Sequence record: DRR378314_1836
DNA: 37,382 nucleotides
Strand: one strand, 5' to 3'
The notes beneath the pieces were generated by a model, which had not been told where the DNA came from, did not search any database, and saw nothing but the letters and a program-made list of their open reading frames with translations. A program made the position numbers and the translations under genes. Of the stretch, positions 5,625 through 23,848 are shown piece by piece; position 1 is the stretch's first letter; each line of letters opens with the position of its first letter.

Positions 5625-5643
5625 AAGGCAATTTTTAACCGTA

Positions 5644-8340
5644 TTAAAACTCGAAACTTAAGGCTAGTTTTATGGTTCGGCCAAATATTGGTCGGCCATA
5701 AAATAGCGGTTCTTGGTGGTTCAGATCATCTCTTGGATTACCTTCCGTCAAGCCCAGTGTGTTAGTGACGTTTTTCACTTCAAATTGCGCGCTGAGCTGC
5801 TCTGTTAGCATATACTGCGCAAAAATATCCCACGTTTGATACGCCGGCAATGCAAATTGATTGGCAATATCAGAATAACGTTTCCCTACATAAGACCAAG
5901 TGATTGCCAGCGTTAGAGGCCCGACGTTATATTCTGGGGAGAGACGCAGTTGCAACTTCGGTGTACGGGTTATTTGGTTACCATTATATTTACTTTGTGG
6001 TAATCGACCGGGAATGCCATAGAACCCTGCATCTTGCCACACGCCTATCGCAGAATACTGCCAAGTCTGATTAAACTGATAGTTATATTCAAACTCTAAC
6101 CCTTGAGTTTGGGTGTTAATTAACACTGCCTGTTGTGTATTTTCAGCACCGCGATAAACAGTAAACGCAAGAGGATCAAAGTTAGTATCAAAAACAGTGC
6201 CGCTAAACTGCCAGTGTGATGATTGGTAACGTATTCCGATTTCACTTAAAGTTAAGCTTATTGGCTGGCCAAAGTTTTGCTGTGCGCGTTGCTCATCGTT
6301 TTTAGCCCAACCGCGAGCATTACCATAATTTATTAGTCGCGGCATTTCAAAAGCGTCAGCATAGCGCGTAAACACAGCTAGCTGCTCACTGAGTTGGTAG
6401 TTGGCTCCGATACTGAGCGCATTTTCACTGAAAGAATCGGCTAGTGAGCTTGTCTCAGAGAAGTGTGAGTAATAAGGCTTTGCATTGGATGTTGATGATA
6501 GCAGGCCCCGCTGACTATGACTGTTTAGCCTAAGCTGCTCATTTCGCAGTGCAAAATCCACCCTTAGTTTGTCAGTTAAGTGCCAGTCCAAACTTGCATA
6601 AAGAGAATGTGACTGCGACTGCCCTTGGCCTGTTAAATACACCGGCCCTGCATAGGATAAAAAACCTTCTTCGGTAAAATTAGCAATAACATTATCTTGT
6701 TTATCCACCAGCACAATATCAAGCCGTTCAGGCTGGTGTTTTACATCAGTAAGTAATTGCCCAAGCCATTGATCTAAAGGCAAAGAGTTAAAATCGCTGT
6801 GGGCGTAAATGTGTCCTAAGCTGATTGACCAATCTTCTTTCAGGTAGTTAATACTAAAATGATTTATAAACTGTTGTTGCTCGTAGGTAGAGTGCAACGG
6901 GTAGCTTGAAGTGATCAGTCCATTGCCATTAAGTCGATGGGGATCGTGAATTAACGTTTTATCCTTGCTGCGCTGGTATTTGGCTTGTAACTCTTCTTGT
7001 AATTTACCCTTTGAAAAAAGATTTTTAAATTGTGTTACATCATCAAACAGTAAGCGGCTATTTGCATCAATAATGCTCTCGTTGCCCAAGTTCATTAACG
7101 TATAAAGGCGATTACTTAAGTCTGCGTAACGGGTGATATTATTAAGTTGCAGTTGTTCTGAAAGTAGCCCTTTGAACTGGACTGTGTAGCTGTTCATTAA
7201 AGTGTGTTGCGCATCTTCTAAATCATGTTGACGGATGCCTTGTGGGGTATAAAAGCTCAATGATTTTAGGTCACCGCTAAGTAATGTGCCGTAGTCATAG
7301 GGGAGGCTTTGTAGTTGTTCGATAGTGCCATGATTTTGCATAACTAATGGGGCATAAAAGCTGGTTTTATCGTTTAAGTGCTTGTAGCTAAAATCCAACT
7401 CTATATCATCTGTTAGCCAGCTGAGACGGGCGCTAAATTGACCGCCTAAATCACTGTTAAAGCCAGGTTCACGAATGCCATTTGAGCTCCTATAAAAACC
7501 ACCTAAGGTATAAAAAAGCTGATCATTAATAGGGCCACTAAATACACTGTCAAGACGAGTGTAGTCATAGTTTAGTGCTTGGCTAAGTTTAACTAAGTTA
7601 AATGGTATTTCGTCGCCGCGTCGACCAACATAGTTTACCATTGCAGCAGGGCCGTTTAGGGTGAAAATTCCGCTACTACCACCTCTTACAGCTTCAATTT
7701 TTTGATGGGTGAGATCGGGGCGTAAAAAAAAATCACTCCAAATACCATCGTAGGTTATTGGCAGCCCATCTTCCATTAAGCTGATAAAGCGAAACCCTTC
7801 ACCACCTCTAAGGCCGCGTGGTGCAACATTGTTATTAGTTTCGCCACCTGAATCCTCTACCCAAAAGCCTGTGACATGTTTAAGAATTTCAGCGTTGGAA
7901 TATGGGGTATGTTGATTTAGTTGCTGCGCTGACAGCTGAGTGATTGAAATAGAAGAATTTAAAATATTACGCGTTTTACCACTGACGCCAGTGACTATAA
8001 TACGCTCAAAGTCGTTCAGTTTATCAACGGGTGTTGGGGTTACAAAAATACGCTGTTGAGTGGAGTCTAAGGTAAATTGATATGGGCTATTGGCCAAAGT
8101 TTTAACCAATAATTGCTCAAGCGTAAAGCGCCCTTGTAGTGGGGGAAGGGGCGCCTGTGCTTTTATATCTGCGGCGCTTAGTTGCCAACCACTTTGCGCA
8201 GCAACATCAAGCATGCGCTGCTGCAAAGTAGCTTCAGCTAAATTAAATTGATAGTCAGTAGTAGCATGTAGATAGCTACTAAATAATATCAACCAAGGTA
8301 ATTGCTTGGTCAATAACCTCAATAACATGGTTTGATTCAA
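5644..8340 (-). CDS. TonB-dependent receptor/transducer with N-terminal STN-like signalling extension
   Basis: ~85 aa extension (YQFNLAEATLQQRMLDVAAQSGWQL..PLQGRFTLEQLLVKTLANSPY) before TonB box ERIIVTG; plug motif IEAVRGGSSG; C-terminal F; directly downstream of fecR-like gene; start TTG8340 or ATG8328. Confidence 0.9.
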   Translation of the reverse strand: MNQTMLLRLLTKQLPWLILFSSYLHATTDYQFNLAEATLQQRMLDVAAQSGWQLSAADIKAQAPLPPLQGRFTLEQLLVKTLANSPYQFTLDSTQQRIFVTPTPVDKLNDFERIIVTGVSGKTRNILNSSISITQLSAQQLNQHTPYSNAEILKHVTGFWVEDSGGETNNNVAPRGLRGGEGFRFISLMEDGLPITYDGIWSDFFLRPDLTHQKIEAVRGGSSGIFTLNGPAAMVNYVGRRGDEIPFNLVKLSQALNYDYTRLDSVFSGPINDQLFYTLGGFYRSSNGIREPGFNSDLGGQFSARLSWLTDDIELDFSYKHLNDKTSFYAPLVMQNHGTIEQLQSLPYDYGTLLSGDLKSLSFYTPQGIRQHDLEDAQHTLMNSYTVQFKGLLSEQLQLNNITRYADLSNRLYTLMNLGNESIIDANSRLLFDDVTQFKNLFSKGKLQEELQAKYQRSKDKTLIHDPHRLNGNGLITSSYPLHSTYEQQQFINHFSINYLKEDWSISLGHIYAHSDFNSLPLDQWLGQLLTDVKHQPERLDIVLVDKQDNVIANFTEEGFLSYAGPVYLTGQGQSQSHSLYASLDWHLTDKLRVDFALRNEQLRLNSHSQRGLLSSTSNAKPYYSHFSETSSLADSFSENALSIGANYQLSEQLAVFTRYADAFEMPRLINYGNARGWAKNDEQRAQQNFGQPISLTLSEIGIRYQSSHWQFSGTVFDTNFDPLAFTVYRGAENTQQAVLINTQTQGLEFEYNYQFNQTWQYSAIGVWQDAGFYGIPGRLPQSKYNGNQITRTPKLQLRLSPEYNVGPLTLAITWSYVGKRYSDIANQFALPAYQTWDIFAQYMLTEQLSAQFEVKNVTNTLGLTEGNPRDDLNHQEPLFYGRPIFGRTIKLALSFEF

Positions 8341-8402
8341 TATTTTTATTATTGTCCAAACTTTGTACCATTTTTAGCGCACGTATGCCATGCCACTTTT
8401 AG

Positions 8403-9452
8403 CTAATTAGCTGCTAACGTAAACTTTTTCCCTTCTTGAGTCACCGTGATTGGATAAATTTTATCAAGGGTGTGTAGCCATGAGTCGATTTCAGAGGTTA
8501 ACAAAGTCCCATTGTAGGTAAATTGACTAAGCTTTTGGCTGCCAAGGGTTATTTTTAGCTCACTATAACGGGCAATATCGTCAAGTACATCACCTAAGCG
8601 AGCATTCTGATACACTAAACGCCCTTGCTGCCAATCCATGGTGAGGTTTTCTCCTTGTGCTTTGCTACGAATAATAGTGCCAGTTTGAGTTATTTGCGCG
8701 GCTTGTCCTTGGGTTAATTTAATTGTTTGCTGCTGTGCAAGCGATACCGTGCCCTCAAGTACATCAACGCGAATAGAAGTAGGATGAGCACGCACATTGA
8801 ACACCGTGCCTAGTGCTTCTACTTGGCTTTGCTGGTGGCGCACAATAAAGGGTCTTTGTTTGTCTTTAGCGACTGAAAATAGTGCTTCACCTTGGTACAA
8901 AGTTAACTCTCGCGAGCTATTACTATAGCGCACAGCTAATTGACTATTAGCGCCTAAATCTACTCGGCTGTTATCATCTAAAGTGAAAGTACGGTGCTCG
9001 TTGATTGTGGTGCGAAAAAACTGATTTTGCACATCGGTCATTGCTGGACTGTTATTTGCCACCGTAACAGTCTTATTTCTGGGCTGTTCAACATTAATGA
9101 AGATACTAAAACTTAATAAAAAAAACGCGGCAGCTAAGGCATAATAGCTTGTTCGAGAGCGTTTTTCAGTACGTTTAATCATGTCTATCGCAGGTGGTAT
9201 TTGCGCAAGCTGTTGCTCTACGTAATCAGTATCTAGTTGCGTAGTTACTTGCCATAGTTGCTGCATTTTTTGAAAAATATCACGGTGCAATTCGCTTTGC
9301 GCCAACCAATCTTGCAACTGAGTTGGGTAGTGATGGCTGTTACTAATGGGCAGTTGCTGCTCCTCTAATAGCAAAAGCCAATCAGCGGCTTGCTCTTCAA
9401 TAATCGCTAAATCGTCAGGTGATGGGTTCATGCTAATATCCTTAAAACTCAT
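8403..9452 (-). CDS. FecR-family anti-sigma/transmembrane sensor
   Basis: EEQAADWLL..WLAQSELHR N-domain, one TM, TLDDNSRVDLGANS, LYQGEALFSVAKDKQRPFIV, LGTVFNV, WQQGRLVY. Confidence 0.93.
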   Translation of the reverse strand: MSFKDISMNPSPDDLAIIEEQAADWLLLLEEQQLPISNSHHYPTQLQDWLAQSELHRDIFQKMQQLWQVTTQLDTDYVEQQLAQIPPAIDMIKRTEKRSRTSYYALAAAFFLLSFSIFINVEQPRNKTVTVANNSPAMTDVQNQFFRTTINEHRTFTLDDNSRVDLGANSQLAVRYSNSSRELTLYQGEALFSVAKDKQRPFIVRHQQSQVEALGTVFNVRAHPTSIRVDVLEGTVSLAQQQTIKLTQGQAAQITQTGTIIRSKAQGENLTMDWQQGRLVYQNARLGDVLDDIARYSELKITLGSQKLSQFTYNGTLLTSEIDSWLHTLDKIYPITVTQEGKKFTLAAN

Positions 9453-9454
9453 GA

Positions 9455-10033
9455 TCAAAGCTCATGTTGTAACTGTTGATAGCAATGACGAACTGCACGT
9501 AATACATATTTTCGTACCATACTGGGAGATATTTGTAAGGTCAAAGCGATTTCTTCATAACTTTGACCACGAATTTTATACAGTAAAAAAGCCAGTCTGC
9601 ATTTGTCTGGCAAACTTGCGAGGGACTTCTCCATTTCTTTAAGTAATTCTTGGGTATGATGATTTTTCTCAGGGTTGGCACTGTTACCAAGTTGCGGCAT
9701 TTGCTCACTTTCGTCAGTGTGCTCTGCAAACGGACTGCGAGCTTTACGACGAAGCTTATCGATGGTTAAGTTGGTTGCTATTTTATATAAATAAGCAGCA
9801 ATGTAATTACTTACTTGGGCATCTTCTAAACCTAACAGTTTTACAAATGCTTCTTGTGCTATGTCCTCTGCTTCACGCTGATCAAGGCCTTTAGCCATAA
9901 TATGGCGTACTAACTTTTGCTGTTGTTGTAAAAACAGCTGCTCAACCTGCTGACGGCGCTGGGCATCGGCTTGTATCGTCACCGGGGCCTCGTTTGCGGC
10001 TTTCTTTCGTTTAAATGACAATAAAGGTGGCAT
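9455..10033 (-). CDS. ECF sigma-70 factor, FecI-like
   Basis: Region 2 AEDIAQEAFVKL..YLYKIATNLTIDKLRR; region 4 LPDKCRLAFLL..GQSYEEIA..SPSMVRKY; ATG10033 preferred because the ORF-track start at 10090 lies inside a hairpin. Confidence 0.92.
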   Translation of the reverse strand: MPPLLSFKRKKAANEAPVTIQADAQRRQQVEQLFLQQQQKLVRHIMAKGLDQREAEDIAQEAFVKLLGLEDAQVSNYIAAYLYKIATNLTIDKLRRKARSPFAEHTDESEQMPQLGNSANPEKNHHTQELLKEMEKSLASLPDKCRLAFLLYKIRGQSYEEIALTLQISPSMVRKYVLRAVRHCYQQLQHEL

Positions 10034-10062
10034 GGCTACGCATCCTATTCTTCCATTTATAG

Positions 10063-10100
10063 TGCTACATGGGTTGTACCAATAGTACAACCCATGTGCA
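10063..10100. other. Strong intergenic stem-loop between GH20 gene and sigma gene
   Basis: ACATGGGTTGTAC (10067-10079), loop CAATA, GTACAACCCATGT (10085-10097): 13 bp perfect, extendable by 3 bp past a bulge; no U-tract on the minus strand. Confidence 0.8.
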
Positions 10101-10110
10101 GTTTGCTTAG

Positions 10111-12855
10111 CTAGTTAATTGTTGCGACGCGGCTTACTTTGCCAGAATCACTTACCGTTCTCAGCAGTACACTTGCTGTTGTCGTAAGTGATACGGGATC
10201 TTGATAGCTTTGCCATGTTGCACCTTGATCTGTTGAATACTCTGTTTTCATGCCAACAAATCGTGTATTCACTATGAGCTGGCCGTTTTCAATATTGCCA
10301 CCGGGTAGAGGTATACGGTAATTAACGCCAACGTGTTCTGGCATTTGAGCATTAATATCGACCACTTGGTAATAGTCCAATAGTGGTAGAGCGTACTGTC
10401 CTAAGGTATTGGTGAAGGTTTGCCAAGCTTGTTCCATAGCAGCTCCTTCGGCTGGCATGCTCTGCACCCACGCACGCTCTGCTGCCCCTAATAACTTAGG
10501 GAAGGTCATGTAATCTAAAATTTCGGGGGATTTTTGATTTTCACCAAATAACTGTGCCTGAATCCCTTGGATATTTTGTTTACCGGTTTCATTAAGTAAT
10601 ACCCAGTTTGGGTTCCAAGGCACAGGATTGCCTAGTTTGTCAGTTTCAGCGTTGGCGTAAATATTAAACGGGCGATACTCAAAGGTTTTTTTCGTGTCGG
10701 TGTAGCCCGCCCAATGATAGCCAACTTCATCAGGGTGTTTATTGTAAGCTAAATCCAAATACAGGTTTGTGGCATGAGAGAGCACGACTTGATACCCCTG
10801 ATTAGCAAACTTATAAGCTTGATGCTCATTGCCCCAACCCCATACATTGTTCCAAAAAATAGGGTAGATGGTGCCATAATCTACGTTGCCGGTGCCATTA
10901 TGTGATAACACATCGCCCCAAGTTGCCATATCAAAACCATGTTGATTGACGATTTGTTTCCAGCGTAAGAAAAAGTAATCAAACAATTCAGCATCGGTTT
11001 TGCCCGCTGTGTTTGGGTTTTGCTGTACCGCAGGGGATTGAGCCCACCATTCATTTGGCCCTAAATGCGGCAATTCATCACCACCGCCATGTAAACGAGT
11101 AAGCTTAGCATCTGGGACTGCATCGTAGATTGCGCGGGTTTCACTGATTATATGGTTTAAAAATGTGAAGGTGCTCTCAAGCGCAGGATTGACAAAGTTA
11201 TCAGTATAAAATTGCGGTGTGTAGTACTTGGATTGATCTAGCGGATCGATCAGGCGATATTTGTTTGCTTGTGCTAAGTTGCTGTCTTTATATTTATTAT
11301 AACGATACTCCATTGCTTTAATGGCGGCTCTAGCATGGGCAGGGAAATCATATTCGATGATCACATCTATATGTCGGTCGGCGGCATACTGTAAAATCTC
11401 TTTGAAGTCATTAACAGTGTAGTAGCCCCAACCTTTGCCTAAGAAGTTTTGCTGCGCAACTTCAAAACCTTGAAAGCTAGGAGCAACGCCTAAGTTAGCC
11501 TCGGTGCGATTAGCTGGTTTATTTTCGATACCATCACCGGCTGCAAATTCATTGGCTGCGCCCATAAACGTATGTAGCATGTTTTCTTCGTTAAGATCAT
11601 AACCACGCTTGGCACCAAAGTCGGTGAGTTCAGGAATACCTGGGATCTCAAGTCGCCAGCCTTCGTCATTGGCAAGGTTAATTTCGAATTTATTTAATTT
11701 ATAAAAAGCCATTAAATCTAGTAGCTTGAATACTGTTTCTTTAGATTGAAAATTGCGTGCTACATCCAGCATCATGCCGCGATAGGCAAAGCGCGGCGCA
11801 TCAAGAATAACACTTGCAGGTAATACGGTGTTGTCGGCCAAGGTTGTAGAGTTTTGCGCATTTTTATATACAGTTGCAGGGATCATTTGGCGTAATGTTT
11901 GAATACCATAAAACACGCCTTGTGCATCACTGCCAGTAATTTTAATACCCGTAAAAGCATTAATCTCCAGTTTATAACCACTGTCGTCGGCTTGGCCGTC
12001 TTGATTTGTGTCTAGGTTGCTATCAATCAATAGAGTGATTTGATTAGGACCATTTTGTTGGTTGGCATTAATTGCAAAGCTGCCGCTGAGCAAATCGCTT
12101 AACGCCGTTTGCAAATAAGCCGCTTCTATTGTAAGCGCTGCTGGCGCAGTAATTGTGGTTAACTGACTCATTAAGGTTAAAAACTCATTAGCAGTGGTTA
12201 CGACTGAATGTGGCTGAGGGACAAGTTGGTTTTGTAACGATAAACTGGCAAGCGGCGCACTGTTTTCGCTAAATCGTAATGCGCTGGTTTGCACCGGCAT
12301 ATTATCGTTAGCTGTTTGTGTGGTTTGTTTTGGATCGGTTGGATCCATATGAACATCCACCAATACCGCCTGAGGTGCTTGGTTATCATAGCTAATATGA
12401 AACCCAGAAGGCGAATCATTTTTTAGCATTTGCCAATACTGGGCGATAATTTCTATTTCACGAGACTCACCTGGTTGAATAGGCGTAAATCCTGCTATGG
12501 GTTTTAAGACAAAATAATCCCCGCTTTTTGCTGTGTCTGCATTGTCGAGACTTAAATGTTGTGCCGCAATATGCTGGCGAGCTAATGCACCGTTTGGATC
12601 TGAACTTGGCAATACGCTAGCTGGTGGCCGCACTGAGCTAAAGTATAACGCCCAGCCAGCTTCACCGAGCGGTTCTAAACCATTGTTAGTAATGGTTAAG
12701 CTACCCATAAATATATTTTCACCAATACCATGATCAATCACTTGCCAATTTAATGCTAAGTTATCTGGGTTCGGTTGGGCGCTGCTAAATTGACTCGCAG
12801 TGAGTAATGCTAATACTGAAAGTGCTGTAGTAAATTTTTGCTTTTTAACAAACAT
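10111..12855 (-). CDS. GH20 beta-N-acetylhexosaminidase, chitobiase-type architecture (CHB_HEX N-domain, GH20b, catalytic barrel, C-terminal Ig)
   Basis: Signal peptide; DAPRFAYRGMMLDVARNF, DEGWRLEIPGIPELT, catalytic HGGGDE, LYLD, AERAW, NYRIPLPG, YSTDQG. Confidence 0.93.
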   Translation of the reverse strand: MFVKKQKFTTALSVLALLTASQFSSAQPNPDNLALNWQVIDHGIGENIFMGSLTITNNGLEPLGEAGWALYFSSVRPPASVLPSSDPNGALARQHIAAQHLSLDNADTAKSGDYFVLKPIAGFTPIQPGESREIEIIAQYWQMLKNDSPSGFHISYDNQAPQAVLVDVHMDPTDPKQTTQTANDNMPVQTSALRFSENSAPLASLSLQNQLVPQPHSVVTTANEFLTLMSQLTTITAPAALTIEAAYLQTALSDLLSGSFAINANQQNGPNQITLLIDSNLDTNQDGQADDSGYKLEINAFTGIKITGSDAQGVFYGIQTLRQMIPATVYKNAQNSTTLADNTVLPASVILDAPRFAYRGMMLDVARNFQSKETVFKLLDLMAFYKLNKFEINLANDEGWRLEIPGIPELTDFGAKRGYDLNEENMLHTFMGAANEFAAGDGIENKPANRTEANLGVAPSFQGFEVAQQNFLGKGWGYYTVNDFKEILQYAADRHIDVIIEYDFPAHARAAIKAMEYRYNKYKDSNLAQANKYRLIDPLDQSKYYTPQFYTDNFVNPALESTFTFLNHIISETRAIYDAVPDAKLTRLHGGGDELPHLGPNEWWAQSPAVQQNPNTAGKTDAELFDYFFLRWKQIVNQHGFDMATWGDVLSHNGTGNVDYGTIYPIFWNNVWGWGNEHQAYKFANQGYQVVLSHATNLYLDLAYNKHPDEVGYHWAGYTDTKKTFEYRPFNIYANAETDKLGNPVPWNPNWVLLNETGKQNIQGIQAQLFGENQKSPEILDYMTFPKLLGAAERAWVQSMPAEGAAMEQAWQTFTNTLGQYALPLLDYYQVVDINAQMPEHVGVNYRIPLPGGNIENGQLIVNTRFVGMKTEYSTDQGATWQSYQDPVSLTTTASVLLRTVSDSGKVSRVATIN

Positions 12856-12914
12856 AATGGCTCCTGAGCATTGTTATTATCTGTAGAGCGCTTACTGCAA
12901 GTTGACTCTAAGGT

Positions 12915-12944
12915 TATAAACGCTTTTAGGAGGCCGTTTGGGAA
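12915..12944 (-). promoter_or_regulatory. Candidate ECF-sigma promoter TTCCCAAAC-N13-CGTTTATA, copy 1
   Basis: Plus strand TATAAACG 12915-12922, 13 nt, GTTTGGGAA 12936-12944; same boxes and spacing at 18002-18031. Confidence 0.75.
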
Positions 12945-12982
12945 CGAAAAACTAAAAAAAGCGCTAAATACGTATTTAGTAT

Positions 12983-13043
12983 TAGGGCGTGTCGACCTTT
13001 CAGAATTAAAATTTGTTCTATCTCGAAAGATAAACACGCCCAA
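12983..13043. repeat. Short MITE-like element with 19-bp imperfect terminal inverted repeats
   Basis: TAGGGCGTGTCGACCTTTC (12983-13001), 23 nt, GAAAGATAAACACGCCCAA (13025-13043); 15/19 complementary; resembles 37323-37341. Confidence 0.7.
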
Positions 13044-13058
13044 GAACTTTAGGCGGTT

Positions 13059-15344
13059 TTAGTACACGGCAATTTCATCAATATAAAGTGGTAGCTTTGG
13101 GATTTGCGGGTCATCAGATTGCTTACTATTGACCGCAATAACTTTTAAATAGCGCAGCTCCACACCATTAAATACCAGAGTCGATAATGGCCCTTGCGGG
13201 TTAATGTCCTCGGCTAAGCGCTGCCAATTTTGTTGATCGTTCGAGCCCATGACTTGAATTTTTATGGGAGGATGGAGTTGACGGTGGCGTCCACTGTTGT
13301 AACCCAGTTTAACTTGGGTCACCAAAGTAGGCTCTGCCAAGTCGATTATCGCCTCTAAATCAGTGTCGTAAAAAATCGCATAATCGTCACTGCTGTAAAA
13401 TTGATCATAGGCAAACTGGCCATCTTGCAATTTGGCTGCAGAATCATCGGCAGCTGTATTACTAAGCGTAATTTTTTTAGTTAATGCCAAATGTGGACTG
13501 AGGGTAAGGCGGGCATCACCAACTAACTGCCCAATTGCACCTGCATAGCTTTTTGCACGCAGTTGCGTTTCTTTAGAAATGACTAACGGCTCACTGTAGA
13601 TCATTGATGAAAGTGTTGGCTCTGTGCCATCTAAGGTGTAATAAATGCGTGTGTTGGCAATCTCGGTGCTGATCTTAGCCTGTAAATTATTACCTATAAT
13701 TGTGCTGCTTATAATCGGCTTATAGGCGCTGCTAGCCGTATTGATATGCATCTGTTGGTAACGTTTAAATAATGCTGGTAAGCGGTTTTGGCTATAGTCA
13801 GACCAAGATTTATTGTGTTTGTTAGACCACAATGTTTCAGCTAATGCACTTAAGCGAGGAAAGAGCATATACTCGGCGTGACGAGGGGTTTTAATGTACT
13901 CAGTCCATAAAGCGCCTTGTGCGCCAATAATGTAAGCTTGTTGATCGGCGCTTAAGTCAGTAGGTTGAGGATCGTACTGGTATACATCTTTTAATCCCGT
14001 TAAGCCATGAATTGCTTTAGGTTCGTCTAGATTGCGTGATTGATAAGCATCAAAATAAATATATTGATACGGGCTCATGATCACTTGATGGCCCATTTTC
14101 GCCGCTTGAATGCCGCCTTCTGTGCCACGCCATGACATGATCAAGGCATCATCTGCAACGCCTCCTTCGAGTATTTCATCCCAGCCAATTACCTTTTTAT
14201 CAAGTGCTTGCACTATTTTTGCTACCCGTTTAATAAAGTAGCTTTGTACTTGCTCGGGGGTTGTAAGGTTATGCTGCTGCATTAATTTTTTCACCTGTGT
14301 ACTTGCCAGCCACTGCTTTTTAATCACTTCATCGCCGCCGATGTGTATATACTGGCTTGGGAATAACTCAGCTACCTCTTGATAAACCACCGCGAGAAAT
14401 TCAAATACATCTTCACGCGGGCATAGCACATCTTCAAAAATGCCAAATTGTGCTTGTACACTAACGGGTTGCTGATGACATGAAAGTTCAGGGTAAGCGG
14501 CAAGGATTGCAGTGCTATGGCCTGGAATATCAATCTCAGGAATGACTTCAATATGACGTGCTTTGGCATATTCAATCACTTCTTTAATTTGTGCTTTAGT
14601 GTAAAAACCCGATACCGGTTGGTTATCAAACAGTGGTTTATAATCATAAGTATGACCTACCACAGTATGCGGGCGAGTAGCACCAATGGAGGTAAGTTTT
14701 GGATAGGCATCAATTGCAAGACGCCAGCCTTGGTCGTCGGTTAAATGCCATTGAAAGACATTTAACTTATGCATAGCGAGCCAATCTATGTAACGTTTAA
14801 TAAAGGCTACATCAAAGAAGTGTCGACTCACATCTAAATGCATTCCACGATAACTAAAGCGTGGCTCATCGTTAATCTCAACTAGTGGGATAAGCCAGCT
14901 TTGGCGATTAATTGGCATGCGTGACTCTATGGCTTCGGGCAATAACTGGCGCAAAGACTGCATCGCCCAAAATAGACCTTGTACAGTATTTGCTTTGGCT
15001 TCAATAAATTCTTTTTTAACAATTAATTGATAGCCTTCAGCGCTAACTGGGTGCTCGACAAGTTTAAAAAACACACTATTTTTAACTGTGTTATTCGCTT
15101 GTGTTACGGGGAATTGGTAGCCAGTTGGTGGGCGTAAAAAATCAGCAAAATGCTGTGCAACAGCTGCTGCGTCACTATGGTTATAGTGAATTTCAGTATC
15201 GTAAGCCAAAGCAAAACTGCCTTGGCTATAGTGACTGCTGGTTGGTTTTGGAGTGATCTGTGCAAGTGCAAAGTAGGGACTAACAAGCAGTAGCAGTGCT
15301 AGTAGACTGCATTTTAGGCATATAGCAATATAGCGTTGAGGCAT
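13059..15344 (-). CDS. GH20 beta-N-acetylhexosaminidase with C-terminal Fn3-associated/CHB_HEX_C and F5/8-type-C (CBM32-like) domains
   Basis: ATG15344 after CAGGAAG; signal peptide; DEPRFSYRGMHLDVSRHF, WHLTDDQGWR, PEIDIPGH, HIGGDE, GWDEI, YFDAY, LWTEY; YYTLDGTEPT; LQDG..IIDL..RYLKV..IDEIAV. Confidence 0.95.
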   Translation of the reverse strand: MPQRYIAICLKCSLLALLLLVSPYFALAQITPKPTSSHYSQGSFALAYDTEIHYNHSDAAAVAQHFADFLRPPTGYQFPVTQANNTVKNSVFFKLVEHPVSAEGYQLIVKKEFIEAKANTVQGLFWAMQSLRQLLPEAIESRMPINRQSWLIPLVEINDEPRFSYRGMHLDVSRHFFDVAFIKRYIDWLAMHKLNVFQWHLTDDQGWRLAIDAYPKLTSIGATRPHTVVGHTYDYKPLFDNQPVSGFYTKAQIKEVIEYAKARHIEVIPEIDIPGHSTAILAAYPELSCHQQPVSVQAQFGIFEDVLCPREDVFEFLAVVYQEVAELFPSQYIHIGGDEVIKKQWLASTQVKKLMQQHNLTTPEQVQSYFIKRVAKIVQALDKKVIGWDEILEGGVADDALIMSWRGTEGGIQAAKMGHQVIMSPYQYIYFDAYQSRNLDEPKAIHGLTGLKDVYQYDPQPTDLSADQQAYIIGAQGALWTEYIKTPRHAEYMLFPRLSALAETLWSNKHNKSWSDYSQNRLPALFKRYQQMHINTASSAYKPIISSTIIGNNLQAKISTEIANTRIYYTLDGTEPTLSSMIYSEPLVISKETQLRAKSYAGAIGQLVGDARLTLSPHLALTKKITLSNTAADDSAAKLQDGQFAYDQFYSSDDYAIFYDTDLEAIIDLAEPTLVTQVKLGYNSGRHRQLHPPIKIQVMGSNDQQNWQRLAEDINPQGPLSTLVFNGVELRYLKVIAVNSKQSDDPQIPKLPLYIDEIAVY

Positions 15345-15358
15345 TGTAACTTCCTGAG

Positions 15359-15380
15359 AAAAGCCCGCAATAGCGGGCTT
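15359..15380 (-). terminator. Weak intrinsic terminator/attenuating hairpin between TonB receptor and first GH20 gene
   Basis: Minus strand AAGCCCGC-TATT-GCGGGCTT then TTCTC; only four U residues. Confidence 0.6.
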
Positions 15381-15427
15381 GATTAAACTAATTAGCACTG
15401 GGCATAGCGCAAATTAGCAAGGGGGCT

Positions 15428-17944
15428 TTAAAAATTAAGGGTCAAAGATGCGCTGATAGTGCGCCCTAAAATAGGTCTGGCGTAGTAATAGTCATAGCCT
15501 GCCTGTACATCGTTAATTGCTCGTGGATTCCCTTCGGTTAAGCCAAGTTCATCACTGAGATTAGTGGCTTTAACATGCAAGGCAACGCTGTCATTAAAGC
15601 GATAATTGACACCCATATCGACGGTAGTATAAGCCGGTAGCTCAAATTTATTTTCGCCGTCGGAGTATCGCTCACCTAGATGATGAACCGTTAAGTACAC
15701 ATCGCCATCGTCAAAGTAATAAGTGGGAGTAAAGCGTAATTGTACTTTGGGAGTACGTTTAACTTGTTTGCCATTCCAGTGTGAGAAAACACCAGTAAAA
15801 CCTTCCATCTTCGGGTTTTGTACCACACCAGTTAATTCCAGTTGTAATGAATCGAGTGCTTGCCAAACAGCCTCAAACTCTACCCCATCAGTAATAGTAT
15901 CAATCGTTTGGTTGGCGACTTCACCGTTGCTACCAGTAAAGTTACGCTCTACTAAGTCATTAAATTTGGTTCTAAATAACGTGACTGAGGTGCCTAGGGT
16001 GTCGCCTGAATAACGAGCGCCAAGTTCGCTAAAGGTAAGATTTACACTGTCATTAAAGTCAGCATCAACACCGGCATGAATGTTTTGCCCGTAGCTCATT
16101 AAACGCGGCATTTCGAACGCATCGGCGTAGCGGCCAAACATGGAAACATCGTCACCAATGGTGTAATTAAAGCCCACTGTCCATGCAGTTTCTGTTTCAT
16201 CACGTTTTTTGGATAAGTATTTTGTTGAGGTGGTATCAACGTAGTTATTAGCGAGGTTGTTATCTACATCATTGCCACTTGCATCAAACGCGCCATCAAC
16301 AGGTTTGGCAAACTCAGTGCCAGATGCCGTGCTATCAAGTTCTAGCCATTCAACGCGAATACCACCATCCAGACGTAAGTTATCAGTTGCTTGATATTGC
16401 TCATTAATAAATAGTGAGTTCGAGGTACTAGTACCAAATGCTGTCGCTTGACCCCAGCCAGGTGCATAGCCGGTTGAGCCGTTGTCGGTGAGCTGACCAA
16501 CCACTTGCTGGTTATCATCTACGGCAACAATATCAAGTAATCGAGCATTGTCTTTAACTTCGGTTAAAAATTGCGATTCCCATTTATCAACAGGCAGTGA
16601 ATCGGCATCGACATAAGCAAACAACCACCCCATAGTGAAAGTGTGTTTATCGCCTTCGTAGGTAAAATTAAGCTTATTAACGAATTGCTCGGCATCGTAA
16701 CGAGAATACAGCGGGTAGCTGGTGGTAACTAAGCCATTGCCATTTAGGTTACTTACATCATTAAGCATTTCGCCGCTATCTACATAACGATATTGGGCTG
16801 CTACAGCGCCATCATCCGCAAACTCATCAAGCATTGCCAGTACATCTTGTTGGCCAAGTCGGTCATTGGCATTGACTAAGGTTGAGTTGTCAAAGTTAAG
16901 CAATATATACATATCGTTTTCAAACTTAGAGTAACGGCCTGCTGTATTAAGTAACCAGCGATCATTGAGCTCCCAATCAAGGTTGTAGCCTAAGGTACTA
17001 AATTTAGTGTGTTGGCCGTCTTTAAGATCGCGTGTTTGGTAACTGCCATCTTCTTGCAAATAGTTAAGTAAGCGCTGACCATTCCCAATTAATGTGCCGT
17101 GTTGCGGATCAACCCCGGGAATGCCTTTTGGATTGTTTTGATCTTGCAGCGGAATTGGCACAAAGAAAGTGGTGTGATCATTTAAATGTTTAGCCGAGAG
17201 GGTTAGTTGTCCTTTATCAAACTCGCGTACTAGATTAAGCCTAAGCTGGCCACCGTGGTCGGCAGTAAATTCGGTGTCTCTGACTCCGTCTGAACGACGA
17301 TAAAAACCACCCATAGACATTTTCCAATTATCACTGATAGGCGTGCCGTAAAAAAACTCACTACGGTACATGCCATAATCGGCAGTTGTGAACTTTATAG
17401 TGGCTTCTTCAACATCATCGGGTTTGCGAGTAATAAAGTTAACGAGTGCCGCAGGGCCGTTAGTAGTCAGTAAACCTGACGTACCACCGCGAACGGCTTC
17501 CATATGTTTGATGGTAATATCTTGACGTTGATAAAAATCTACCCATACGCCGTCGTATACAACTGGCAAGCCGTCTTCTTCAACGCCGATATAACGAAAT
17601 CCTTCACCACCTCTAAGACCACGTGGCGCTACATTGTTATTGGTTTCACCACCTGAGTCTTCAACCCAAAAACCTGGCACTGCTTCAAGTAAATCAGCAG
17701 TACCTAGCGGGGCTTCACGGGAGAGTTGCTCAGCATCTAAGGTGGTGATTGAAACTGATGATTCTAATTTTGTTTGTCCACGCCCGCCACTACCTGTGAC
17801 AACGATGCGTTCAAGATCGAGAAGTTTTTTTTGCTCGGTATTAGAGGCAGAGCTTTGTTCTGCTGCAATAGTATTAATACTGAATAATGCACTGCTTACA
17901 GCTAATGCTATGAGGTGTTTATTGTAAGTTCTGTTGTTGTTCAT
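15428..17944 (-). CDS. TonB-dependent receptor without signalling extension, likely GlcNAc-oligosaccharide transporter
   Basis: Signal peptide; TonB box ERIVVTG close to mature N-terminus; MEAVRGGTSG; LGLTEGNPR..ARPILGRT..F C-terminus; upstream of two GH20 genes (substrate is inference). Confidence 0.93.
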   Translation of the reverse strand: MNNNRTYNKHLIALAVSSALFSINTIAAEQSSASNTEQKKLLDLERIVVTGSGGRGQTKLESSVSITTLDAEQLSREAPLGTADLLEAVPGFWVEDSGGETNNNVAPRGLRGGEGFRYIGVEEDGLPVVYDGVWVDFYQRQDITIKHMEAVRGGTSGLLTTNGPAALVNFITRKPDDVEEATIKFTTADYGMYRSEFFYGTPISDNWKMSMGGFYRRSDGVRDTEFTADHGGQLRLNLVREFDKGQLTLSAKHLNDHTTFFVPIPLQDQNNPKGIPGVDPQHGTLIGNGQRLLNYLQEDGSYQTRDLKDGQHTKFSTLGYNLDWELNDRWLLNTAGRYSKFENDMYILLNFDNSTLVNANDRLGQQDVLAMLDEFADDGAVAAQYRYVDSGEMLNDVSNLNGNGLVTTSYPLYSRYDAEQFVNKLNFTYEGDKHTFTMGWLFAYVDADSLPVDKWESQFLTEVKDNARLLDIVAVDDNQQVVGQLTDNGSTGYAPGWGQATAFGTSTSNSLFINEQYQATDNLRLDGGIRVEWLELDSTASGTEFAKPVDGAFDASGNDVDNNLANNYVDTTSTKYLSKKRDETETAWTVGFNYTIGDDVSMFGRYADAFEMPRLMSYGQNIHAGVDADFNDSVNLTFSELGARYSGDTLGTSVTLFRTKFNDLVERNFTGSNGEVANQTIDTITDGVEFEAVWQALDSLQLELTGVVQNPKMEGFTGVFSHWNGKQVKRTPKVQLRFTPTYYFDDGDVYLTVHHLGERYSDGENKFELPAYTTVDMGVNYRFNDSVALHVKATNLSDELGLTEGNPRAINDVQAGYDYYYARPILGRTISASLTLNF

Positions 17945-18001
17945 CTTATTCCCTTCGTTGTTGTTATAGACAAAGCTGACGGATTATTGGCTTTGTAAAT
18001 C

Positions 18002-18031
18002 TATAAACGAACGAAGGGGGAGGTTTGGGAA
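18002..18031 (-). promoter_or_regulatory. Candidate ECF-sigma promoter TTCCCAAAC-N13-CGTTTATA, copy 2
   Basis: Plus strand TATAAACG 18002-18009, 13 nt, GTTTGGGAA 18023-18031; 58 nt upstream of the receptor ATG (copy 1 is 60 nt upstream of its ATG). Confidence 0.75.
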
Positions 18032-18052
18032 TCGTTTCTTATAAAAAATTAT

Positions 18053-19252
18053 TTAAGGCAGGATTGAATGTTTAAAAAATCTGATTAAATCAATATTAAA
18101 ATCTTTAGGTTTCACGGCTGACTCCAGTGCATCATGAGTACGGCTATGAGCCAAATCAATATCTTCAACGCCTGTGTAGCGTGCATGTTTGGCATGATAA
18201 AAGGTTTTAACCTGCGGTTTTAGCGGGCTTGCTGGGTTGCTTTTTGTTACCAATCCGACTTTTTGGCTTGAAAGCTTCACCAAAGTACCAACAGGGTGGA
18301 TACCAATACATTGGATAAACTTGGTCAATAGCTCGCCATCAAAGCTATCAGGACAACCATCTTTTAGTATTTTAAAGGCTTTAATGGGCTCCATGCCATC
18401 TTTATAAACTCGCTCAGCTGTAAGCGCGTCATATACATCAACAATCGATGCCATACGCACATACTGACTGATTTCATCGGCGTGCTTACCAAACGGGTAG
18501 CCACTGCCATCTAGGCGCTCGTGGTGAAAGCCTGCAATATCAACAGCAATGCCTGTTAAACCTGACTCTTCTAGAATTTGCTTACTATAAAGCGCATGAT
18601 TTTGAATTGTTTTAAACTCTTGCTCAGTCAACCTTCCGGGTTTGTGAAGAATCTCATCAGGGATTTGTATTTTACCAATATCGTGTAGCAGGGCGCCTGT
18701 CGCTAGTTCTTCTATGAGCTCTTTTTCAAAATTTAAATGCTTGGCAAAAATACTAATTAAAACAGAAACATTAATTGAGTGCTCTAATAGGTAACTGTCT
18801 TTTTCTCGCATCCGTGTAATACAGGCCAGCGCATCTTGGTTACGAAAAACCGAATCAATAAAGCCACTTGCAAGCTCTTTAAATGGCGCTACTTCAATTG
18901 TTTTTCCTGCTTTAATATCACTAAATGCCTTGCTCTGTAAGTCTTTAGCTTCACAATAAAGTTTTTGAGCTTTGCCCATCTCTTGTTCAACAGAGTGAGT
19001 GGTATGCCATGGGTCACGTTGTTTTGGAGTGTCACTAACAATGGGGGCGTCGTTTAGCTCTTTTGGTTGCTCTATGATGGTTTTATCAGGGTCAATCTCG
19101 ACCTCTAAAATACCCGCTTTTATTAACTTATCGATACCAGCCTGCGTTTTTACCCACCCTTGGTTTTTTATTTTGATATTACCTGACTGCTTCGTTACTT
19201 GTTGTACGAACATACCGGGTAGAAGCTGTTTTATAGGAATGGTTTTAAACAT
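18053..19252 (-). CDS. HD-GYP cyclic-dinucleotide phosphodiesterase with DUF3391-like N-domain
   Basis: IPIKQLLPGMFV N-terminus; EHSINV, LLHDIGK, HHERLDGSGYPFG, IVDVYDALT..RVYK. Confidence 0.92.
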   Translation of the reverse strand: MFKTIPIKQLLPGMFVQQVTKQSGNIKIKNQGWVKTQAGIDKLIKAGILEVEIDPDKTIIEQPKELNDAPIVSDTPKQRDPWHTTHSVEQEMGKAQKLYCEAKDLQSKAFSDIKAGKTIEVAPFKELASGFIDSVFRNQDALACITRMREKDSYLLEHSINVSVLISIFAKHLNFEKELIEELATGALLHDIGKIQIPDEILHKPGRLTEQEFKTIQNHALYSKQILEESGLTGIAVDIAGFHHERLDGSGYPFGKHADEISQYVRMASIVDVYDALTAERVYKDGMEPIKAFKILKDGCPDSFDGELLTKFIQCIGIHPVGTLVKLSSQKVGLVTKSNPASPLKPQVKTFYHAKHARYTGVEDIDLAHSRTHDALESAVKPKDFNIDLIRFFKHSILP

Positions 19253-19312
19253 TACTTACTCAAAAAAATTCGCATACATTAAAGTTAGCAAACTTTTCAT
19301 TGTATAAGTAGC

Positions 19313-19338
19313 AAAAAGGGCGCTAAAAAGCGCCCTTT
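19313..19338 (-). terminator. Intrinsic terminator of putA
   Basis: AAAAAGGGCGCT-AAAA-AGCGCCCTTT just past the putA stop. Confidence 0.85.
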
Positions 19339-19356
19339 AATACTTAGTTGTTGATT

Positions 19357-22300
19357 TTATTCGTCATCTTCAACCAAAGTCATGAGAGATGTGTTACCAC
19401 CTGAGGCGGTAGTATCAATACTAATCGTCTTTTCTGTGATCAGACGTTTGATCAGCGTATCGTAATACTCTGAGCTTATCACAGGCAAGATTGCGCCTTT
19501 GCGTTGTGCAAGCTGCTGGCTAAAGTAGCCCAGACGTGATGAACGTGCTGCAACCACTGCGCCCGCTAAATGTGGATGCGCCAAGATTGCTTGTAGCTGG
19601 TTTGGCTTTGCAACTTGGAACACACCTTCAGCGACACCCGTTGAGATAAACTTGTCTTTAAACGCAACAGCTTCATCATAGAATAACTCTGATGCTACTG
19701 TGATTACAGTATTACCCGCTGCAAGTGCAGTGATAATAGAGATAGCCCAAAAGTTAAATGATGTACTCTTATCTGCATAACATACTACACAACCGCGTGC
19801 TTCAAGGTGTAGTGTGTTTGATTCGCCAGTTGGCCCTGGTAACGTAGTATATTTACGCATGTGCTTTTCAAGTCGGTTTAGCTGGGCACGTGCATCGGCA
19901 AGTGTTAATGCTAAATCATCTGCAAGCTCATCGATGATATCAACGGTGGCTACTTTGGCTAATAACTGTCTAACAGCAGAAACACGGTCATTTAGCGGTG
20001 TGCCACGCCAAATTTTTTCGTCGCGCATTGAGTTAGTCATTAACTTTTCAACTTGCTCATTTGCACCTGAGTAGTGGTGTAAATCAAGCTCATCGGGCGT
20101 TAAGTTGGTCATTTGCACGTTATCAGGTGACGCTTTTTCTTTAACTAAGCGTTGCAGGTAGTTTGGACCACCTGCTTTCGGGCCAGTACCAGATAAACCA
20201 CGACCACCAAACGGTTGTACGCCTACAATTGCACCAATCATATTACGATTAACGTAAACGTTGCCCGCGCGTGACATTTTAGCAAGGTATTCACAGCGCT
20301 CTTCGATACGTGAATGAATACCCATAGTTAAGCCAAAGCCAGTGTTATTGATTTGGTCAACAACACTGTCAATTTCAGTGCCCTTAAAGCGAATTACATG
20401 CACACATGGGCCAAATACTTCACGTTTAAGTACTGATAAATCTTTGATTTCATATAAGCGTGGAGCAAAGAAATAAGCGCCATTTTCAGTATTATCAGGA
20501 ATTTCACACTCATAGTGCAGTGTGGCATTGCCTTTTAGATACTCAACGTGATCGGTTAGGTTCTTCAATGCTTTTTCATCGATAACAGGACCAATGTCTG
20601 TTGAGAGTAGTGCAGGGTCGCCAACATGTAACTCTTTTAGCGCCCCTTTGATCATCTCAATGATGCCATCTGCCACGTCTTCTTGTAAAAATAATACACG
20701 CAATGCAGAACAGCGTTGACCGGCACTTTGGAAACCAGAACTAATCACATCATCAACCACTTGCTCAGGCAGTGCAGTTGAATCGACGATCATACAGTTT
20801 TGACCACCTGTTTCGGCAATTAACGGTACTTGAATATCATTACGCGCTGCAAGTGTTTGTGAGATGATAGTGCCAGTCTCGGTTGAACCGGTGAACATCA
20901 CTGCTTGAATACGCTCATCGGGTACAATTGTCTTACCTACTTCACTACCGCGGGCAATAACAGGTTGTACAACATGCTCAGGTAAACCTACTGATAACAT
21001 TAGTTCAATAGAGCGCAGTGCAATGTAACTAGTTTGTTCAGCTGGTTTTGCGATAACGGTATTACCGGTTACGATTGCAGCAGCTACTTGACCCAAAAAG
21101 ATAGCAAGTGGGAAGTTCCACGGGCTTATACATAAAATAACACCGCGGGCTTCAAAGCGCTCATCTTCACTAAGCTCTTCAGCACGCGCTGCGTAGTAAC
21201 GACAAAAATCAACAGCTTCGCGTACTTCATCAATGCCATCTTGTGCAACTTTACCAGCTTCTTTAATACAGATTGCTACAAGCTCATCATGGTGGCGTTC
21301 TAGAATATCGGCAATACGACGAAGTAAATTTGCACGCTCTTTTACAGGTGTTTGTGACCATGACTCAAAGGCCGTTTCCGCGTTAGCAAGTAGGCTAAGC
21401 ATGTCATCACTGTTATGTAATTTAACGTGGCCAATGACTTCTTTATGATTAGCTGGATTTTTAACCGCTAATGAGCCTTCAGGTACGTCACTTTCATTAA
21501 TGCGATGTTCTTCAAACCACGAATCTAGGTTTTCTTTAAAGGGTGTAATTGCATTGATGTCAGTTAAATCCATACCTTTTGAATTAGCACGCTCTGCGCC
21601 GTATAAATCAATTGGCATCTTAATTTGCGTGTTGTACTTATTACGTAAACCTTGCAGTGTTTCTACAGGATCAGGGAGTAATGCTTCAACAGGTTGCGTG
21701 GTATCAACAATCGCATTTACAAACGATGAGTTAGCACCGTTTTCAAGTAAGCGACGAACCAAGTATGCAAGTAAGTCTTCGTGCTGACCAACAGGTGCAT
21801 ACACGCGACACTGAATTTTCTCTTGCGTTACGATTTGGTCAAATAAAGACTCGCCCATACCGTGCAGGCGTTGGAATTCAAATCCATCATGATCGCCTTT
21901 TGCAACTTCTAGAATCGTTGCGGCAGTGTATGCGTTATGAGTGGCAAATTGTGGATACAGCACGTCACGCGCTTCAAGCATTTTAATAGCACAGGCTTTG
22001 TATGAAACGTCAGTCGTTGCTTTTCGGGTAAATACAGGGAAATGATCTAAACCATCTTGCTGTGTAGTTTTGATTTCTGTATCCCAGTAAGCGCCTTTAA
22101 CTAAGCGTACCATTAGTTTGCGCCCAACGCGGGTAGCAAGCTCTGTGAGCCATTCGATAACAAAAATAGCGCGTTTTTGGTATGCCTGAACAGCTAGACC
22201 AAAACCATGCCAGCCAGCTAAATCGTCGTCGCTAAATACGGCCTCAATGACATCAAGAGAAATATCCAAGCGGTCAGCTTCTTCAGCATCTACTGTAAAG

Positions 22301-23160: not shown

Positions 23161-23330
23161 AAGTAACCTCAAAAGTGTGGAGTCTTGCAGCAAAAAAAGA
23201 GTGCTGCTCGATTATCATGTTGTTTAATGCGTGCATTCTAATTAAATTCCAGCAGAATATGCTGGTTAAATTTGCCGATTTACGATAATTTACAGGGCAT
23301 ACGTTAAACTTATCCGCATAAAATTCTGTT

Positions 23331-23810
23331 ATGACAAGTCCCAATAGATTACGCCTGCTTGATCGTATCGATTTAGCAATTTTAGACGTTCTGCAAAAAA
23401 ACGGCAGAATATCTAATGTGAACCTTGCAAAGCAGGTTAACTTAAGCCCAAGCCCTTGTCTTGACCGAGTAAAACGACTCGAGCAAGAAGGTTATATCGA
23501 GGGCTACTTTGCTAAGCTTAACGAAGCAAAACTTAACCAGAGTTTATTAGCGCATGTACAAGTGTCATTAGTAACATCAAATACGGCCGTATTTAAAGTC
23601 TTCCGTGAACATATTTTACGAATTACTCAAGTTATCGAGTGCGATATGGTAGCAGGGGGTTACGATTATTTATTAAAAATACGTGTGTCAGATATGGACG
23701 AATACCGCCAAGTGTTAGGTGATTTAGTTGATATACCGGGTGTGGGCACGCACCATACCTATATGGTTATTGAGAAAATAAAGCAAGACAATGGTCTCAA
23801 GCTCGATTAA
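23331..23810 (+). CDS. putR: Lrp/AsnC-family regulator divergent from putA (PutR-like)
   Basis: LDRIDLAIL..LQKNGRISNVNLAKQVNLSPSPCLDRVKRLE, GGYDYLLK; divergent putR-putA layout; symbol assigned from context. Confidence 0.85.
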   Translation: MTSPNRLRLLDRIDLAILDVLQKNGRISNVNLAKQVNLSPSPCLDRVKRLEQEGYIEGYFAKLNEAKLNQSLLAHVQVSLVTSNTAVFKVFREHILRITQVIECDMVAGGYDYLLKIRVSDMDEYRQVLGDLVDIPGVGTHHTYMVIEKIKQDNGLKLD

Positions 23811-23840: not shown

Positions 23841-23848
23841 TGTATTGC

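Follow-up and report, generated by a model that had tools for sequence, protein, structure and literature searches.

A bipartite motif, TTCCCAAAC-N13-CGTTTATA, heads both gene groups of a 12-kb amino-sugar gene island of marine Pseudoalteromonas, and it is probably an autoregulated -35/-10 promoter recognised by the ECF sigma factor encoded within the same island (9455-10033). In the 37,382-bp stretch of DNA analysed here (the window), two exact copies are found on the minus strand, at 18031-18002 and 12944-12915, with 17 identical bases over the two boxes; one copy (site 1, P1) precedes a TonB-dependent receptor and a GH20 hexosaminidase, and the other (site 2, P2) precedes a chitobiase-type GH20 enzyme followed by the sigma factor, a FecR protein and a TonB-dependent transducer. 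The motif had been proposed as a cognate ECF promoter in a first-pass annotation of the window, and comparative sequence evidence supports this proposal in four respects: conservation of the motif, its shift to the sigma gene where the intervening gene is absent, its co-occurrence with the FecR gene, and the presence of a related motif in a sister clade of sigma factors. The motif gives a hitherto uncharacterised ECF sigma of FecI-like type a concrete recognition sequence that lends itself to testing; this sigma would control the uptake of amino sugars, probably derived from chitin, in marine Alteromonadaceae, with a regulon of two operons. Together, the motif and the sigma factor make a candidate orthogonal switch.

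Gene content of the island and its variability between strains

In the order of the minus strand, the region comprises genes for PutA and an HD-GYP protein, motif 1, the TonB-dependent receptor, the 779-aa GH20 enzyme, a hairpin, motif 2, the 914-aa chitobiase-type GH20 enzyme, a second hairpin, and the genes for the ECF sigma, FecR and the TonB-dependent transducer (Table 1). The 838-aa receptor has no N-terminal signalling extension. The sigma factor contains regions 2 and 4 only, according to Pfam; it scores 83.5 bits against the NCBIfam sigma70-ECF model (cut-off 42.9) and fails the FecI equivalog (NF041727) with 80.2 bits against a cut-off of 260. The FecR gene overlaps the sigma stop codon (9455-9458). 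The transducer is 894 aa long when read from its ATG, within an 898-aa ORF that begins with TTG 8340 and in which the Pfam Plug domain starts at residue 128; no STN domain is recognised by Pfam in the extra N-terminal segment of about 100 residues. In an AlphaFold model based on nine orthologues, residues of about 25-100 have a pLDDT of about 90 and match the signalling domains of PupB, FecA, PupA, FpvA and HasR (PupB 6ovm_B, E 5e-4; FecA 1zzv, TMt 0.77; PupA 2a02, TMt 0.79). Based on this STN-like fold match in the model, the product of the last gene of the island is assigned as an STN-bearing TonB transducer. With this assignment, the FecIRA-type signalling trio, consisting of the ECF sigma, the adjacent FecR anti-sigma and the STN-bearing TonB-dependent receptor, is complete in the block, and these three are the only regulators that the block encodes.

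The island is variable between strains. In G001, the nearest genome compared with the window (99% identity), a mere 33 bp on a single contig separate the sequences corresponding to window positions 1-5624 and 18053-37382; the six-gene block is missing in its entirety, and the flanking stop codons are 33 bp apart. Both motifs, their target genes and the sole nearby regulators thus come and go together. The block is found at the same place in several other Pseudoalteromonas species, and no integrase or repeat was noticed at its ends. The last 60 bases of the window (37323-37382) have more than 40 matches in G001 with 80-97% identity and represent a short dispersed intergenic repeat.

Table 1. 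Positions of the putative promoter elements, hairpins and genes of the island in the window
Feature	Position	Strand	Remarks
P1 box 1 (-35-like), TTCCCAAAC	18023..18031	-	conserved core TTCCYAAA
P1 box 2 (-10-like), CGTTTATA	18002..18009	-	conserved core CGT(T/A)
P1 predicted transcription start zone	17994..18000	-	predicted from IS-box-like geometry only
P2 box 1 (-35-like)	12936..12944	-	match and conservation across loci
P2 box 2 (-10-like)	12915..12922	-	match and conservation across loci
P2 predicted transcription start zone	12907..12913	-	predicted only, same reasoning as for P1
TonB-dependent receptor, 838 aa, first gene of unit 1	15428..17944	-	Pfam Plug and barrel; Plug from residue 59
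GH20 beta-N-acetylhexosaminidase, 779 aa, second gene of unit 1	13059..15398	-	Pfam Glyco_hydro_20, E 1e-124
Terminator-like hairpin after unit 1	13037..13055	-	-11.9 kcal/mol, z -4.3
GH20 chitobiase-type enzyme, 914 aa, first gene of unit 2	10111..12855	-	Pfam CHB_HEX, Glyco_hydro_20b, Glyco_hydro_20, CHB_HEX_C
Hairpin between chitobiase and sigma genes, no U-run	10066..10098	-	-25.2 kcal/mol, z -5.5
ECF sigma factor, 192 aa	9455..10033	-	ATG 10033; Pfam Sigma70_r2, r4_2, Sigma70_ECF
FecR-type anti-sigma factor, 351 aa	8403..9458	-	Pfam FecR, FecR_C, DUF4880
TonB-dependent transducer with N-terminal STN domain	5644..8328	-	Pfam Plug; STN from fold search
Strain-variable block, 12.4 kb, with both motif copies and all six genes	5625..18052	.	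missing from G001

Two copies of the motif in the window

The positions of the boxes, the 13-nt spacer and the distances to the start codons given in the first-pass annotation are borne out by the sequence. At site 1, a spacer at 18022-18010 separates the boxes, and the final base of the motif lies 58 nt from the A of ATG 17944, the start codon of the receptor gene; at site 2, the spacer occupies 12935-12923, and the final base lies 60 nt from ATG 12855 of the chitobiase-type gene. The two 13-nt spacers are unrelated (ctcccccttcgtt vs ggcctcctaaaag). The T-tracts noticed earlier just upstream of both sites are likewise present. When up to three mismatches are allowed, these two are the only matches on both strands of the window, compared with a mean of 0.17 matches in shuffled windows and two or more matches in 0 of 100 shuffles, which excludes chance as an explanation within the window.

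Conservation across related loci

The comparison covered 21 loci, namely the window, nine Pseudoalteromonas genomes, one Colwellia and one Thalassotalea genome, and nine metagenome contigs. The 11 genome loci, including those of Colwellia asteriadis and a Thalassotalea, were found with the middle GH20 gene and have the same gene order; the nine metagenome loci were found with the receptor alignment. A loose expression yielded 39 gene-strand matches over the 21 loci, one of which (L013:20034) was dropped from the site set owing to its poor box 1 and the lack of a gene to serve. In the first-pass annotation, absence of the motif upstream of orthologues had been named beforehand as grounds for rejecting the promoter reading; the motif was found at 38 of the 38 positions for which upstream DNA is available. 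The receptor gene accounts for 20 of these, and the chitobiase gene, replaced by the sigma gene in loci that lack it, for the other 18; the related loci share ancestry, and these counts do not represent independent events. The N13 distance between the boxes and the orientation towards the gene are the same in all 38 sites; the spacers and flanks are variable. Such rigid spacing is expected of an ECF promoter, in which a -35 core of 5 nt and the -10 core are about 16-17 nt apart.

Among the 35 unique sites, T1, T2, C3, A6 and C23-G24-T25 are invariant, an invariance that is partly built in because the expression fixed some positions; positions 3, 4, 8, 27 and 30 were left free or half free. C4 is kept in 33 sites, A7 in 34 and A8 in 32, and the base after CGT is T in 33 sites and A in two. 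Position 9, the C of the "AAC" that the first-pass annotation had taken as an ECF-type -35 feature, is C in only 6 of the 35. The conserved core is TTCCYAAA-N14-CGT(T/A), not "AAC"; of the two ECF-type elements originally claimed, the CGT of the -10 box has held up in every unique site and the AAC has not. A -35 box without the AAC common in ECF promoters counts against the sigma-promoter reading; AAC in the -35 element is common rather than universal among these promoters. No described ECF group with a TTCCYAAA-type -35 box was found in the literature, and nothing relevant was found there on this locus or its promoter in Pseudoalteromonas. Downstream of the boxes, 32 of the 35 unique sites have A as base 38 of the motif (window 17994), and the site-1 leader hairpin begins directly after it.

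When both strands of all 21 loci were scanned with a position weight matrix built from the sites, nothing beyond the known sites (14.4-44.6 bits) scored above 12 bits, and 20 window shuffles gave one match in total. In particular, the transducer gene of the island clade has no motif in front of it, which speaks against the promoter reading, since this gene is the canonical FecI target. The island and the motif occur together in at least five genus groups, that is, Pseudoalteromonas, Colwellia, Thalassotalea and two further groups of the family search described below. An order-level receptor search matched none of 401 genomes, in a sample that included five genomes of the genus, none of them island-bearing, and this result is therefore uninformative.

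The motif follows the sigma gene and the island

In three loci that lack the chitobiase gene (L017, L022 and L023), the second motif copy lies directly before the sigma gene, and the same holds for L065, L067 and L068; with L072, L073, L075, L077 and L078, this arrangement is found in 11 distinct chitobiase-less loci. A sigma search of 401 genomes of the family identified seven orthologues with 53-58% identity, two of which belong to the L022 and L023 genomes, and in all seven the motif is located just upstream of the sigma gene and points at it. The spacing of the motif is also fixed in the five further genomes of this search; two expression matches, L072:2798 and L074:3484, were dropped because of poor boxes or off-spacing. 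The motif is thereby placed as autoregulation would have it, upstream of the sigma factor's own operon.

The genome-wide scan suggested in the first-pass annotation agrees with this picture. An orthologue of the FecR gene (E <= 1e-60) is present in 15 of 140 genomes of the genus. The strict pattern TTCCYAA-N15-CGTTTA has 57 matches in these 140 Pseudoalteromonas genomes, 25 of which are located within 9 kb of the FecR orthologue, with one or two in each of the 15 carriers. The other 32 matches compare with about 95 for a reversed control (hand count over the 140 genomes); half of them (16) form four recurrent families, and in the one example inspected for each family the match lies inside an ORF (4/4). 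A second pattern, applied to five island genomes, matched 15 times and its control 25 times; seven of the 15 matches are island sites, and all eight others are intragenic. In the island-less G001, the best motif has two mismatches, with one such match against three for the reversed control. Outside the block, the motif is no commoner than a control pattern.

A related motif in a sister clade of sigma factors

With a lower threshold, the 401-genome family sample yielded 13 more distant sigma homologues. The five best-scoring ones (L079-L083, of which L082 and L083 are nearly identical) show 35-37% identity by HMMER and 36-40% by tblastn and are the nearest sigma factors outside the orthologue group. 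In each of them, the sequence GTTCCG(A/T)...CGT(C/T), that is, TTCC-N17-CGT, is found 52-59 nt before the estimated start of the sigma gene, with a FecR gene downstream of sigma; in L079, it directly follows a terminator-like T-run. No such motif was found within 350 nt of the other eight homologues. The wider regions around three of the five show that the cargo is peptidase or oligopeptide transport: in two of the three, sigma, FecR and the transducer are followed by peptidase or oligopeptide-transporter genes, and in both of these a second motif copy is located between FecR and the transducer gene, a position that is the classical target of FecI-type sigmas. Five of the six expression matches in the 60 kb of these wider regions are at promoter positions; the sixth, L094:6028, is intragenic and was dropped.

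The TTCC...CGT pair goes with this sigma branch whatever the cargo, which argues that the sigma factor, and not a factor linked to the GH20 genes, reads the motif; this independence of cargo is the strongest argument for recognition by the sigma. The sister-clade systems are likely peptide-sensing relatives with their own promoter variant. The individual GTTCCG-N16-CGT(C/T) sites are L093:9648 and 11418, L094:9656 and 11441, and L092:10367; they stand before the sigma gene in L092-L094 and also before the transducer gene in L093 and L094, and the associated genes encode a peptidase, an amidohydrolase or an oligopeptide transporter.

Proposed mechanism

In the mechanism that we propose, an oligosaccharide of the GlcNAc type bound at the STN-bearing transducer would signal via FecR and free the sigma factor. 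RNA polymerase carrying this sigma would contact TTCCYAAA with region 4 of the sigma and CGT(T/A) with region 2, and transcription would start a few bases downstream, in the two predicted start zones. The importer and both hexosaminidases would be raised and, by way of unit 2, so would the sigma, the anti-sigma and the transducer, which amounts to positive feedback; the transducer gene, with no motif of its own, would be co-transcribed with the sigma and FecR genes.

Complementarity between the motif spacer and the Shine-Dalgarno region

The spacer and the CGTT of box 2 make up a stretch that can base-pair with the Shine-Dalgarno region of the gene that follows. In the window, 18010-18022 pairs with 17949-17962 and 12923-12935 with 12858-12875. 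The duplex at site 1 has 13 bp and -16.1 kcal/mol, and ends 5 nt before the AUG; the 13-nt spacer alone gives -14.7 with its cognate Shine-Dalgarno region against a mean of -6.3 with other Shine-Dalgarno windows, and among shuffled spacers one in 200 pairs as well. The two partners change together in L018/L064 and make use of G-U pairing in L019-L021; in the Colwellia-like L065, L066, L068 and L071, the sequences are wholly different and still complementary. At site 2, the pairing amounts to -14.2 in L018, -13.6 in L063 and, with bulges, -15.5 in the window, and the spacer alone pairs weakly in L013 (-3.1). No complementarity was found at site 1 of L022, L023, L067 and L070, or at most sigma-proximal sites. 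Over 38 unique spacer/Shine-Dalgarno pairs, the cognate mean is -7.8 and the non-cognate mean -5.4.

In leaders folded from box 1, the ribosome-binding site is buried (-13 to -26 kcal/mol); in those folded from motif position 36, it is open in most cases. For eight site-1 leaders, RNAalifold returned a long-range helix of 10 pairs, two of which have double changes. For 11 site-2 leaders, the long-range helix was not returned, since its registers differ between lineages; folds of single sequences show it.

We tentatively suggest that the promoter could be dual-purpose, the boxes recruiting the island sigma, and the spacer with CGTT acting as an anti-Shine-Dalgarno element that silences read-through transcripts. 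Transcripts arriving by read-through or from basal upstream starts would fold onto the ribosome-binding site and stay untranslated. The mRNAs started by the sigma, from which the spacer is missing, would alone be translated, and translation of the cargo would be tied to initiation by the sigma. The boxes are kept where the complementarity is absent, and the pairing is therefore taken as an add-on rather than as evidence that the boxes act in RNA. In IS10, pairing of an upstream sequence with the ribosome-binding site of the transposase gene is known to protect this gene against transcription coming from outside. By analogy, a transcript would be translatable only if it began at the element's own promoter and did not carry the complementary segment upstream; unlike in IS10, the putative complementary segment would sit in the promoter spacer of sigma-dependent catabolic genes. 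If confirmed, this pairing would offer inducible genes a compact protection against expression by read-through.

Alternative explanations

Co-variation of the spacers with the Shine-Dalgarno region implies that selection acts on transcripts already begun before the -10 box, and it raises the weight of an explanation in which the motif acts as RNA. On this view, a housekeeping promoter or read-through would give rise to transcripts that begin at box 1 or further upstream, the leader helix would hide the ribosome-binding site, and some factor would open the helix. Consistent with this are the stable pairing of the spacer and CGTT with the Shine-Dalgarno region at site 1, the lineage-specific compensating sequences (L018/L064, L065/L066/L068/L071 and site 2 of L063), the RNAalifold helix in the eight site-1 leaders, and AT-rich -10-like hexamers that often occur a few bases upstream of box 1. 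RNA data for an L013-like strain (X3-X6; assembled contigs of four runs from one sample) also bear on the question. The contigs leave out L013:7338-7602, which includes site 1, the leader and the first 160 nt of the receptor gene, and in three of the four runs a contig runs straight across motif 2; this RNA may be read-through or DNA carry-over, and it fits a leader RNA as well. We nevertheless regard an RNA element as unlikely. The boxes are kept despite the lack of complementarity at site 1 of L022, L023, L067 and L070 and at most sigma-proximal sites; the site-1 folds leave box 1 unpaired, and yet it is the most invariant part of the motif; at site 2, box 1 follows the terminator T-run at a distance of only about 10 nt; Rfam 15 has no match at E <= 1 over window positions 5000-19500; the sister clade has the same two-box geometry, with no anti-Shine-Dalgarno sequence seen by eye at one site (L093); and no RNA-binding regulator is encoded in the island.

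The remaining explanations keep the motif at the DNA level and assign it to another protein. It seems to us very improbable that a transcription factor of the host, such as an amino-sugar regulator, uses the motif as its operator to control a sigma-70 promoter. Amino-sugar genes are commonly controlled by repressors, and a weak TAnnnT follows the CGT (T29 in 26, A30 in 29 and T34 in 30 of the 35 sites), but the motif is asymmetric and always has one orientation, it travels with the island across at least five genus groups, and it is not enriched outside the island in the 140 genomes, the five island genomes or G001, where a host factor should have other sites. Neither site has a sigma-70 consensus (TTGACA-N16-18-TATAAT-like; 22 matches in the region vs 32.3 expected). 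An operator with AAAC/GTTT dyad symmetry was rejected on account of position 9, which is C in only 6 of the 35 sites. The motif could also be an ECF-type promoter read by a different ECF sigma encoded in the host chromosome, as several ECF/FecI-like paralogues exist (up to 32 first-look candidates per genome). Such a sigma would be expected to have further targets, and none were found outside the island in the 140 genomes, the five island genomes or G001; moreover, in 11 loci the gene directly behind the motif is that of the island sigma itself, and the nearest homologues of this sigma have a related motif before them, so that we give this possibility hardly any credence.

Comparison with known systems

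The best-known arrangement of this type is FecI-FecR-FecA of Escherichia coli, a cell-surface signalling system with the fecA promoter. The island resembles it in having an ECF sigma, a FecR-type anti-sigma, a TonB-dependent transducer with an N-terminal STN domain and, as proposed here, a dedicated promoter that would be read only by the freed sigma. Unlike in the Fec system, the cargo consists of two GH20 hexosaminidases and a second receptor instead of iron transport; the sigma reaches 80 of the 260 bits required by the FecI equivalog, and its gene is part of the induced unit; the transducer gene is not headed by a motif; and the -35 sequence is different.

The IS box of the Pseudomonas PvdS-type sigmas is given as TAAAT-N16-CGT in the excerpts available of PMC2235872. 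The promoter-like spacing claimed in the first-pass annotation finds a parallel there: with N13 between the boxes in 38 of 38 sites, the island motif can be read as TCCCA-N16-CGT, which has the same geometry, the same CGT and AT-rich surroundings as that description of the IS box (PMC2235872, in part). It differs from the IS box so described (PMC2235872) in its -35 sequence, TCCCA and not TAAAT, and in belonging to a sugar-use island and not to a siderophore regulon.

Trans-envelope signalling by ECF sigma, anti-sigma and SusC proteins has been reported for the glycan loci of Bacteroides thetaiotaomicron, in the sections consulted of PMC2709373. As far as those sections go, the two systems have in common that a glycan-sensing transducer, an anti-sigma and an ECF sigma activate neighbouring glycan-degrading genes, including hexosaminidases, with positive feedback on the transducer (PMC2709373); in the island, these steps are predicted. 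The B. thetaiotaomicron sigma genes are described in the same sections as having housekeeping promoters and as not being induced (PMC2709373), whereas the island motif heads the unit that contains the sigma gene. Furthermore, the island has no SusD partner, and its host is a gammaproteobacterium.

Among FecI-like groups, the available portion of PMC7826278 describes ECF240 and ECF242 as having no conserved promoter motifs and no autoregulation, and ECF239 as possibly autoregulated with the motif (A|G)ACA/TAC. The same portion mentions two receptors in the neighbourhood of ECF242s7 (Alteromonas), and it is by this described neighbourhood only that the island can be likened to ECF242s7 (PMC7826278). 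Unlike ECF240 and ECF242 as described there (PMC7826278), the island has a conserved motif, which in many loci lies 2.8 kb upstream of the sigma gene and at that distance would be missed by a scan of the region just before the gene. Each of the comparative sequence tests carried out here supports the reading in which a FecI-like sigma, so far uncharacterised and encoded in a sugar-use island, would drive its own expression from this motif. It would follow that a FecI-like system can be autoregulated from a promoter kilobases upstream of its sigma gene, and that surveys restricted to the region just before the sigma gene would overlook such a promoter.

Hairpins and leaders around the putative promoters

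In each of the five relatives whose site 2 was folded, a terminator-like hairpin (-11.4 to -15.7 kcal/mol) has the T-run as its tail, and its U-run stops about 10 nt short of box 1. A terminator-like hairpin of -15.5 kcal/mol also lies directly 5' of the motif at site 1 of L016. This placement of terminators favours the promoter reading. In the window, the site-2 terminator stem is weakened by a change (z 0.29). The window has a 59-bp strain-specific insertion at 12988-13046, which is absent from L013-like strains, where the joint is seen in RNA-library contigs; the insertion overlaps or adds the hairpin at 13037-13055, and the ancestral stem beside motif 2 is the one weakened in the window.

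The chitobiase and sigma genes are separated by a gap of 80 nt in the window, and RNA contigs of the L013-like strain span their junction. The hairpin in this gap is kept as a structure, with different sequences, in the seven relatives folded (-16.6 to -25.9 kcal/mol); RNAalifold gives no consensus for this spacer because of the register, and single folds show the hairpin in each relative. This hairpin could be a processing or stability element. It is followed by a conserved TATAAAT/TACAAAT-GGAAGA stretch, which could be a weak basal promoter for the sigma gene.

In the site-1 leader, the predicted start zone is directly followed by a small hairpin at 17966-17996 (minus strand); its stems differ among four lineages, one pair represents a double change, and the hairpin is lost in L014. 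The site-2 leader (12853-12914, minus strand) contains an invariant GCUCU with two alternative pairing partners, the Shine-Dalgarno AGGAGC and a UAGAG further upstream.
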